Below, piece by piece: positions 1 to 583 of a stretch of DNA of 583 nucleotides. Each line of letters opens with the position of its first letter. Position 1 is the first letter of the stretch. The position numbers and the translations under genes are program-made. This stretch comes from a phage: the sequence record FN641800.1; one strand, 5' to 3'. Below the pieces are notes generated by a model that saw only the letters and a list, made by a program, of their open reading frames with translations, did no database searches and was not told the origin of the DNA.

Positions 1-22
1 ATTTGGGGGGTTCAGCCGCTGA
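1..22 (+). other. Probable primer-derived sequence (forward degenerate g23 primer, inosine positions read as G)
   Basis: Nt 1-22 (atttggggggttcagccgctga) match positions 4-25 of the forward g23 primer as I recall it (GATATTTGIGGIGTTCAGCCIATGA), with G at all three inosine positions (nt 6, 9, 18) and one mismatch at nt 19 (c versus primer a). The resulting gggggg run is typical of inosine-containing primers copied into amplicons. Confidence 0.55.
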
Positions 23-583
23 ACAACCCGACTGGCCAGGTATTTGCCCTGCGTGCAGTTTACGGTAAAGACCCTGTCGCTGCTGGTGCTAAAGAAGCTT
101 TCCACCCGATGTATGCTCCGAACGCTATGTTCTCCGGTCAGGGCGCCGCTGAAGCTTTCGAACCTCTGGCTGCAAGCAAGCTGCTCACCGTTGGTAAAAT
201 TTATTCTCACTCCTTCGAAGCAACCGGTTCTGCACACTACCAGGCTGTTGAAGCTGTAACCGTTGATGCTGGCGCTACTGATGCTGCTAAACTTGACGCT
301 GAAGTTACCAAACTGCTCGAAGCTGGTAAGCTGGCAGAAATCGCTGAAGGTATGGCTACCTCTATCGCCGAACTGCAGGAAGGCTTCAACGGTTCTCAGG
401 ATAACCCGTGGAACGAAATGGGCTTCCGCATCGATAAACAAGTTATCGAAGCTAAATCCCGCCAGCTGAAAGCAAGCTACTCTATCGAACTGGCACAGGA
501 CCTGCGCGCTGTTCACGGTATGGACGCTGATGCCGAATTGAGTGGTATTCTGGCTACCGAAATCATGCTGGAAATCAACCGCG
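1..583 (+). CDS. 23: Major capsid protein gp23 of a T4-like phage; internal fragment, partial at both ends (no start or stop codon in window)
   Basis: Frame 1 (codons from nt 1) is open across all 194 complete codons: IWGVQPLNNPTGQVFALRAVYGKDPVAAGAKEAFHPMYAPNAMFSGQGAAEAFEPLAASKLLTVGKIYSHSFEATGSAHYQAVEAVTVDAGATDAAKLDAEVTKLLEAGKLAEIAEGMATSIAELQEGFNGSQDNPWNEMGFRIDKQVIEAKSRQLKASYSIELAQDLRAVHGMDADAELSGILATEIMLEINR. Long stretches (PTGQVFALRAVYGKDPVAAGAKEAFHPMY; DAGATDAAKLDAE; EAGxxxEIAEGMATSIAELQEGFNGSxDNPWNEMGFRIDKQVIEAKSRQLKAxYSIELAQDLRAVHGMDADAELSGILATEIMLEINR) match the phage T4 gp23 sequence as I recall it; this is recognition from memory, not a database search. Codon usage is strongly biased, as expected for a highly expressed late structural gene. 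It is missing from the ORF track because the frame has no stop in the window and no start codon at its 5' end. Confidence 0.93.
   Translation, partial: MWGVQPLNNPTGQVFALRAVYGKDPVAAGAKEAFHPMYAPNAMFSGQGAAEAFEPLAASKLLTVGKIYSHSFEATGSAHYQAVEAVTVDAGATDAAKLDAEVTKLLEAGKLAEIAEGMATSIAELQEGFNGSQDNPWNEMGFRIDKQVIEAKSRQLKASYSIELAQDLRAVHGMDADAELSGILATEIMLEINR
559..583 (+). other. Probable primer-derived sequence (reverse complement of reverse g23 primer)
   Basis: Nt 559-583 (gaaatcatgctggaaatcaaccgcg) are the exact reverse complement of the reverse g23 primer as I recall it (CGCGGTTGATTTCCAGCATGATTTC), and the window ends on the last primer base. Confidence 0.6.

Follow-up and report, generated by a model that had tools for sequence, protein, structure and literature searches.

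The 583-nucleotide stretch of phage DNA analyzed here (record FN641800.1; hereafter, the window) is, with high confidence, a g23 amplicon of Escherichia phage vB_EcoM_VR20 or of a virtually identical Gaprivervirus, and its variable core corresponds to the I domain of the major capsid protein, evolving under weak constraint. The features of the window are listed below.

1-583, plus strand: partial g23 coding sequence (major capsid protein gp23), frame 1, open at both ends, equivalent to T4 aa 111-304
1-22, plus strand: footprint of the MZIA1bis forward primer minus its first 3 bases (GAT), delimited base by base against the primer, VR20, and T4
23-150, plus strand: conserved N-terminal flank, T4 aa 118-160, including I-domain linker 1 (E-loop equivalent)
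151-264, plus strand: divergent segment originally flagged, the N-terminal ∼38 residues of the I domain, T4 aa 161-198
212-212, plus strand: single non-primer difference from VR20, C for T, giving TCC (Ser71) for TTC (Phe71; T4 Phe181)
265-303, plus strand: middle of the I domain, T4 aa 199-211 (DAGATDAAKLDAE)
304-336, plus strand: second variable patch, VTKLLEAGKLA, C-terminal end of the I domain, T4 aa 212-222
337-558, plus strand: conserved C-terminal flank, T4 aa 223-296
559-583, plus strand: footprint of the MZIA6 reverse primer, exact reverse complement (25/25)

Identity of the fragment and its closest relatives

Translation showed that frame 1 of the window is open from end to end. The translated fragment matched the Pfam Gp23 profile (PF07068) over profile positions 24 to 188 of 376, with 149.9 bits against a cut-off of 24.4 (E = 1.7e-43), and phmmer aligned its residues 1 to 194 without gaps to T4 gp23 aa 111 to 304 (PDB 6uzc, E = 2.8e-100). 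Hence, in the numbering used throughout, fragment residue n is T4 gp23 residue n+110. Gap-free phmmer alignments were obtained with the solved capsid structures 6uzc, 5vf3, and 8t9r, with E values of about 1e-100. The profile score and the ungapped alignment to T4 confirm that the fragment encodes part of gp23, as had been proposed from the sequence. The paralogous vertex protein gp24 gave a far weaker match of 27 bits, which was confined to the C-terminal part of the fragment (aa 132 to 194). More than 800 phage records among the matches carried the annotation major capsid or major head protein. In the VR20 genome, the fragment maps to the annotated major capsid gene, located between the gp22 and gp24 homologues; the window itself holds only part of g23, one member of the head-gene order 21-22-23-24. 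Open reading frames in the other frames and on the other strand were rejected as spurious, being just short (≤71 aa), starting with TTG, and lying inside a highly conserved capsid gene. Judging from its 83% identity to the solved T4 gp23, the protein is predicted to adopt an HK97 fold with an I domain in the E-loop equivalent. An AlphaFold2 model computed from the single sequence of the 194-aa fragment was not interpretable (mean pLDDT of 39.7).

We then located the relatives of the window by a megablast search against 50,697 phage records. The top match was Escherichia phage vB_EcoM_VR20, aligned over 583/583 nt with 99.0% identity, followed by VR26 (96.6%), VR7 (96.4%), and VR25 (96.4%); Tequatrovirus records showed about 79 to 82% identity. 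VR20 is Gaprivervirus vr20, of the Tevenvirinae (KP007360/NC_028894), and among the matches with taxonomy checked, VR20, VR26, and VR7 all belong to Gaprivervirus, which places the closest relatives of the fragment in this genus. Only six bases differ from VR20, at positions 6, 9, 12, 18, 212, and 564, and 535 of the 536 bases between the primer sites are equal. Five of these differences were imposed by primers and the sixth is internal (C212 versus T; Ser71 versus Phe71), so that the gp23 protein of VR20 is the same as that of the fragment save for the primer-derived Trp2 and Ser71. Species are delimited in ICTV practice by a genome-wide nucleotide identity of about 95%.

The fragment and aa 111 to 304 of T4 gp23 (NP_049787; PDB 5VF3, 6UZC, and 7VS5) are the same protein, of the same length and without indels, with 83% amino acid identity overall and 93 to 98% in the flanks. 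In contrast, the near-identity in DNA that would identify T4 itself was not found, since nucleotide identity was 80.6% overall and 85% even in the flanks, with a dS of about 0.75, and the two phages belong to different genera, Tequatrovirus and Gaprivervirus. These results bear out the original prediction of a Tevenvirinae relative distinct from T4. An exact match to a phage with a known sequence had been named at the outset as the sign of a known variant, and the 535/536 agreement with VR20 is essentially such a match. The particular variant is already known, being present in GenBank within the VR20 genome. Thus, the fragment is assignable to the VR20 lineage of Gaprivervirus, a result that matters little beyond bookkeeping. 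The G+C content of the fragment is 52.5%, versus 46.2% for the homologous T4 fragment; therefore, the two lineages encode the same highly conserved protein with noticeably different synonymous codons.

Clustering of the differences in the I domain

In total, 33 of the 194 amino acids differ from T4, and their distribution is strongly uneven. The segment aa 51 to 88 (nt 151 to 264) differs at 20 of its 38 positions, compared with 5/50 for aa 1 to 50 (Trp2 artefact included) and 8/106 for aa 89 to 194, where 6 of the differences fall within the 11 residues aa 102 to 112 (nt 304 to 336). Overall, 26 of the 33 differences lie within T4 aa 161 to 222, in the I domain. The highest-scoring 38-aa interval starts exactly at aa 51, and when 33 differences were placed at random 100,000 times, no interval of this size ever contained as many as 20 (permutation p < 1e-5). 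The contrast between 20/38 and 13/156 differences was likewise significant (Fisher odds ratio of 12.2, p = 5.6e-9). The original prediction had placed a segment substituted without length change at nt 151 to 264 and a shorter variable patch at nt 304 to 336; the coordinates and both quoted peptides were correct, the patch differs from T4 at 6 of 11 residues, and the conserved-variable-conserved pattern stands, as the differences are clustered rather than evenly spread. Nucleotide identity to T4 was 85.3% for nt 1 to 150, 61.4% for nt 151 to 264, and 85.2% for nt 265 to 582. The flanks, described at the outset as T4-identical, are near-identical as protein, but their DNA is only about 85% identical and dS is uniform across the fragment. 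Near-identical protein flanks thus imply neither identical DNA nor a mosaic.

In T4, the gp23 I domain protrudes from the surface of the capsid and is attached through long linkers (Fang et al., PMC9546572). The domain is globular, comprises 60 residues, gives rise to bumps on the capsid exterior, and lies on the neighboring subunit of the same capsomer (Rao et al. 2023, PMC9958956). Because I-domain linker 1 covers T4 gp23 aa 132 to 160 (PMC9546572) and the domain counts ∼60 residues, the I domain lies at about T4 aa 161 to 220, corresponding to fragment aa 51 to 110 and nt 151 to 330, with boundaries that derive from these two published statements and not from structure coordinates. The divergent segment begins exactly at the published junction between linker and domain, and together with the second patch it spans the I domain to within about two residues, so that both belong to one structural module. 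Accordingly, the earlier description of two separate regions holds in that both are variable, but they are parts of a single structural domain that is variable family-wide. The suggestion that the variable part is exposed on the surface is also supported, as this part lies in the I domain, a published capsid-surface protrusion (PMC9546572, PMC9958956), the outer location being that of the published domain description and not of a per-residue mapping of our own. The substituted positions of the domain would be the solvent-facing ones.

Soc binds at a site made up of the N-fist together with the I-domain linkers (PMC9546572), and the described Hoc contact region is gp23 aa 326 to 344 (PMC10385173). 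Therefore, the variable stretch lies outside both described decoration-protein sites, and the conserved flanks include elements that form such sites. From the published domain order, the C-terminal flank should include I-domain linker 2.

We next evaluated variability across the gp23 family. A word-index protein search with the internal 178 aa returned 5 proteins, too few for a variability profile, and column entropy was instead computed on 72 distinct gp23 fragments obtained from 69 IMG/VR and 15 GenBank loci. Mean entropy was 0.56 bits for aa 3 to 50, with 17/48 invariant columns, and 1.53 bits for aa 51 to 112, with 3/62 invariant columns. It reached 1.62 bits in the segment aa 51 to 88 (2/38 invariant columns) and 1.43 bits in the second patch, and it dropped to 0.28 bits in aa 113 to 194, where 46 of 82 columns are invariant. 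The middle of the I domain (aa 89 to 101) shows no difference from T4, yet it is variable in the family (1.37 bits, 0/13 invariant columns). Insertions relative to the FN641800.1 fragment are concentrated immediately behind aa 50 and aa 107, and the solved relative 8gmo is 9 residues longer over the span aa 51 to 112. Together, these results establish that the I-domain stretch is a variable, indel-prone module across the gp23 family. That the gp23 I domain is a variable surface module has long been known, and the finding is real but ordinary. Within the domain, Phe53, Gly65, Ile67, Phe72, Gly76, Gln81, and Gly109 of the fragment (T4 positions 163, 175, 177, 182, 186, 191, and 219) are near-invariant and probably form the domain core or the interface with the neighboring subunit. 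Also, we noticed a 148-aa "hypothetical protein, partial [Enterococcus faecalis]" that is 98% identical to part of the capsid fragment and is encoded on a 446-bp contig; it is probably a contamination or a mislabeled contig of the assembly that it came from.

Insertion domains of other phages offer a comparison. Those of P22 and phi29 are likewise extra surface domains on an HK97 fold and the most divergent part between relatives, and gp23 of PhiM9, which has a reduced E-loop insertion, varies most at the E-loop insertion domain (PMC4621102). What sets the T4-type I domain apart from these other HK97 insertion domains is its position within the E-loop equivalent, resting on the neighboring subunit, an arrangement described as so far seen only in T4 (PMC9546572).

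Constraint, recombination, and selection

We compared the fragment with T4 region by region using the Nei-Gojobori method. The segment aa 51 to 88 had a dS of 0.94 (0.937), a dN of 0.446, and an omega of 0.48, whereas the flanks had a dS of 0.75, a dN of 0.036, and an omega of 0.05. The difference in dN between segment and flanks was highly significant (p = 2.4e-12); dS did not differ (pS of 0.535 versus 0.475, Fisher p = 0.66), although dS values near 0.8 to 1 approach saturation, which blunts the power to see such a difference. The N-terminal flank, with 3 amino acid differences in aa 9 to 50, had an omega of 0.037 and a dS of 0.87, and the C-terminal flank, with 2 differences in aa 113 to 194, had an omega of 0.056 and a dS of 0.69 (aa 113 to 186). 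In the second patch, dN was 0.43, dS 0.48, and omega 0.90, values that derive from 11 codons with 8 non-synonymous and 3 synonymous changes. Comparisons with JS10, SP18, CF1, and KP1 showed the same contrast. Every pairwise omega was below 1 (0.12 to 0.9), a result that is compatible with positive selection at a few sites. As silent divergence is uniform, all parts of the fragment have diverged from T4 over the same period. The pattern points to weak constraint specific to the I domain and to strong purifying selection on the flanks, and relaxed constraint, not adaptive change, would be the main cause of the divergence of the I domain.

A mechanism consistent with these values can be proposed. 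The I domain of this phage would be a globular unit inserted in the HK97 E-loop equivalent and resting on the neighboring subunit, as are the bumps outside the T4 head, and most of its positions would tolerate replacement. The flanks would comprise the I-domain linkers and the adjoining core, and they would be nearly invariant because the contacts that they make within and between capsomers and, in T4, the Soc binding site are under purifying selection. Silent changes would have accumulated equally along the fragment in both lineages, but fixation of amino acid changes would have been about ten times easier in the I domain.

Near-identical protein flanks around a divergent core look like a mosaic, and one could suppose that a T4-like g23 backbone had taken up the I-domain cassette of a distant T4-like phage; such swaps do occur in g23, as between T4 and vB_EcoM_G29. 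However, silent divergence is alike inside and outside the segment (p = 0.66), the DNA of the flanks is just ∼85% identical to that of T4, and VR20, VR7, and VR26 are the closest phages for the flanks as well as for the rest of the fragment. We thus regard this origin as very improbable for the fragment, and a T4 mosaic around a foreign core was rejected on the uniform dS. The comparison of T4 with vB_EcoM_G29, both of them Tequatrovirus, gave a different picture: dS was 0.11 in the flanks and at least 1 across aa 51 to 101 (p = 8e-8), and the difference profile (30-nt) showed sharp breakpoints; the segment concerned is the following.

T4 5425-5577 and vB_EcoM_G29 250-402, equivalent to fragment nt 151-303: high-dS segment of the I domain

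Between T4 and G29, most of the I domain has undergone a real recombinational replacement within the genus. Comparing dN with dS therefore separates constraint from recombination and detects a real I-domain swap where there is one; the mosaic reading, wrong for the FN641800.1 fragment, is right elsewhere in the family. For Edwardsiella phage PEi26, dS relative to the fragment was 0.22 in the C-terminal flank, 0.78 in the N-terminal flank, and 1.02 in the I-domain segment. Such an asymmetry, the reverse of that between T4 and G29, suggests that g23 has had a mosaic history involving Kanagawavirus and the Gaprivervirus/Dhakavirus group.

We also considered whether the substitutions are due to diversifying selection acting on the outer surface of the capsid, with weak constraint alone being insufficient. 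Possible pressures are escape from a host capsid-sensing defense or from antibodies, surface charge, and cold adaptation. Such selection would fit the exposure of the I domain on the capsid surface (PMC9546572, PMC9958956), the ten-fold rise in omega in the I domain, which reaches 0.90 in the 11-codon second patch, the shift in net charge of aa 51 to 112 from -2 in T4 to -4 in the fragment, and the description of VR20 as a low-temperature T4-like coliphage (PMC9785759). Nevertheless, every pairwise omega is below 1 and positive selection is not demonstrated, the omega of the second patch rests on the few changes counted above, and no defense sensor or decoration protein is documented to contact the stretch (PMC9546572, PMC10385173). 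We consider it unlikely that diversifying selection is the driver. The broader proposal that the I domain is an adaptive surface module, shaped by diversifying selection and by cassette exchange among Tevenvirinae of the kind that T4 versus G29 suggests, with Ser71 as a genuine microvariant, appears more doubtful still. If true, the module might serve, for example, escape from capsid-sensing defense, or surface or thermal tuning in low-temperature phages like VR20. Weak constraint on the I domain remains our preferred explanation.

Primer-derived ends and base 212

The standard primer pair for g23 surveys consists of MZIA1bis, 5'-GATATTTGIGGIGTTCAGCCIATGA, whose first two inosines appear in print as N, and MZIA6, 5'-CGCGGTTGATTTCCAGCATGATTTC (PMC10101079). 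Surveys of the diversity of T4-type phages have relied on MZIA1bis/MZIA6 amplicons as markers (Filee et al. 2005, cited in PMC10101079 and PMC5943533), and hypervariable regions within g23 have been noted (PMC5011856). Since its ends coincide with both primers and primer bases override the template, the fragment is an amplicon of this pair, in agreement with the original reading of the sequence as a g23 amplicon. Positions 6, 9, and 18 are G, exactly at the three inosine positions of MZIA1bis; position 12 is T as in MZIA1bis, where VR20 has A; and position 564 is C as in MZIA6, where VR20 and T4 both have T. Primer and VR20 disagree at 6 positions, and the fragment follows the primer at 5 of them and the template at position 19. 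Consequently, five of the six differences from VR20 do not come from the phage. The G at position 6 turns a conserved Cys codon, TGT, into TGG and gives Trp2, and of the 72 gp23 fragments, 64 carry Cys and 7 carry Ala at residue 2, with Trp solely in FN641800.1. Trp2 is a primer artefact, and it would mislead protein comparisons.

These observations have a practical side. The gene g23 owes its role as the standard marker for T4-type phages to a variable region enclosed by conserved priming sites. The fragment shares with survey amplicons the primer pair at both ends and this layout, but it belongs to a cultured and fully sequenced coliphage lineage, whereas survey amplicons come from unknown environmental phages. 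In such amplicons, the first 22 and the last 25 bases derive from the primers and should be trimmed before translation or phylogeny; left in place here, they produce five spurious base differences and a spurious replacement of Cys by Trp.

The remaining difference from VR20, C212, falls inside the flagged divergent segment. All close relatives have Phe at residue 71. A 30-mer containing T212 was present in four IMG/VR contigs, corresponding to VR20, VR25, VR26, and VR5, and no exact match to the C212 30-mer was found in IMG/VR viral contigs or in JGI metagenome contigs. Either C212 is a microvariant private to this phage, or it arose as an error in PCR or sequencing. With primer-derived ends and one private base change in the segment, the divergence as a whole might be suspected to stem from a chimeric PCR product or from low sequence quality midway along the read. 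Against this, the reading frame is intact, and the core equals the independently determined VR20 genome save for one base and is near-identical to VR7, VR25, and VR26. An artefact of this kind is barely credible, and a chimera or sequence error was rejected for the whole segment, which is that of the VR20 genome apart from base 212.

Base 19 lies within the forward footprint and is C, as in VR20, where the primer has A; codon 7 thus reads Leu, not the primer-encoded Met. For the fragment to be an amplicon of MZIA1bis, this template base calls for a small extra assumption, such as 3' trimming by a proofreading enzyme. It suggests either that the 3' end of the primer was trimmed and recopied from the template by a proofreading polymerase or that a variant of the primer was used.
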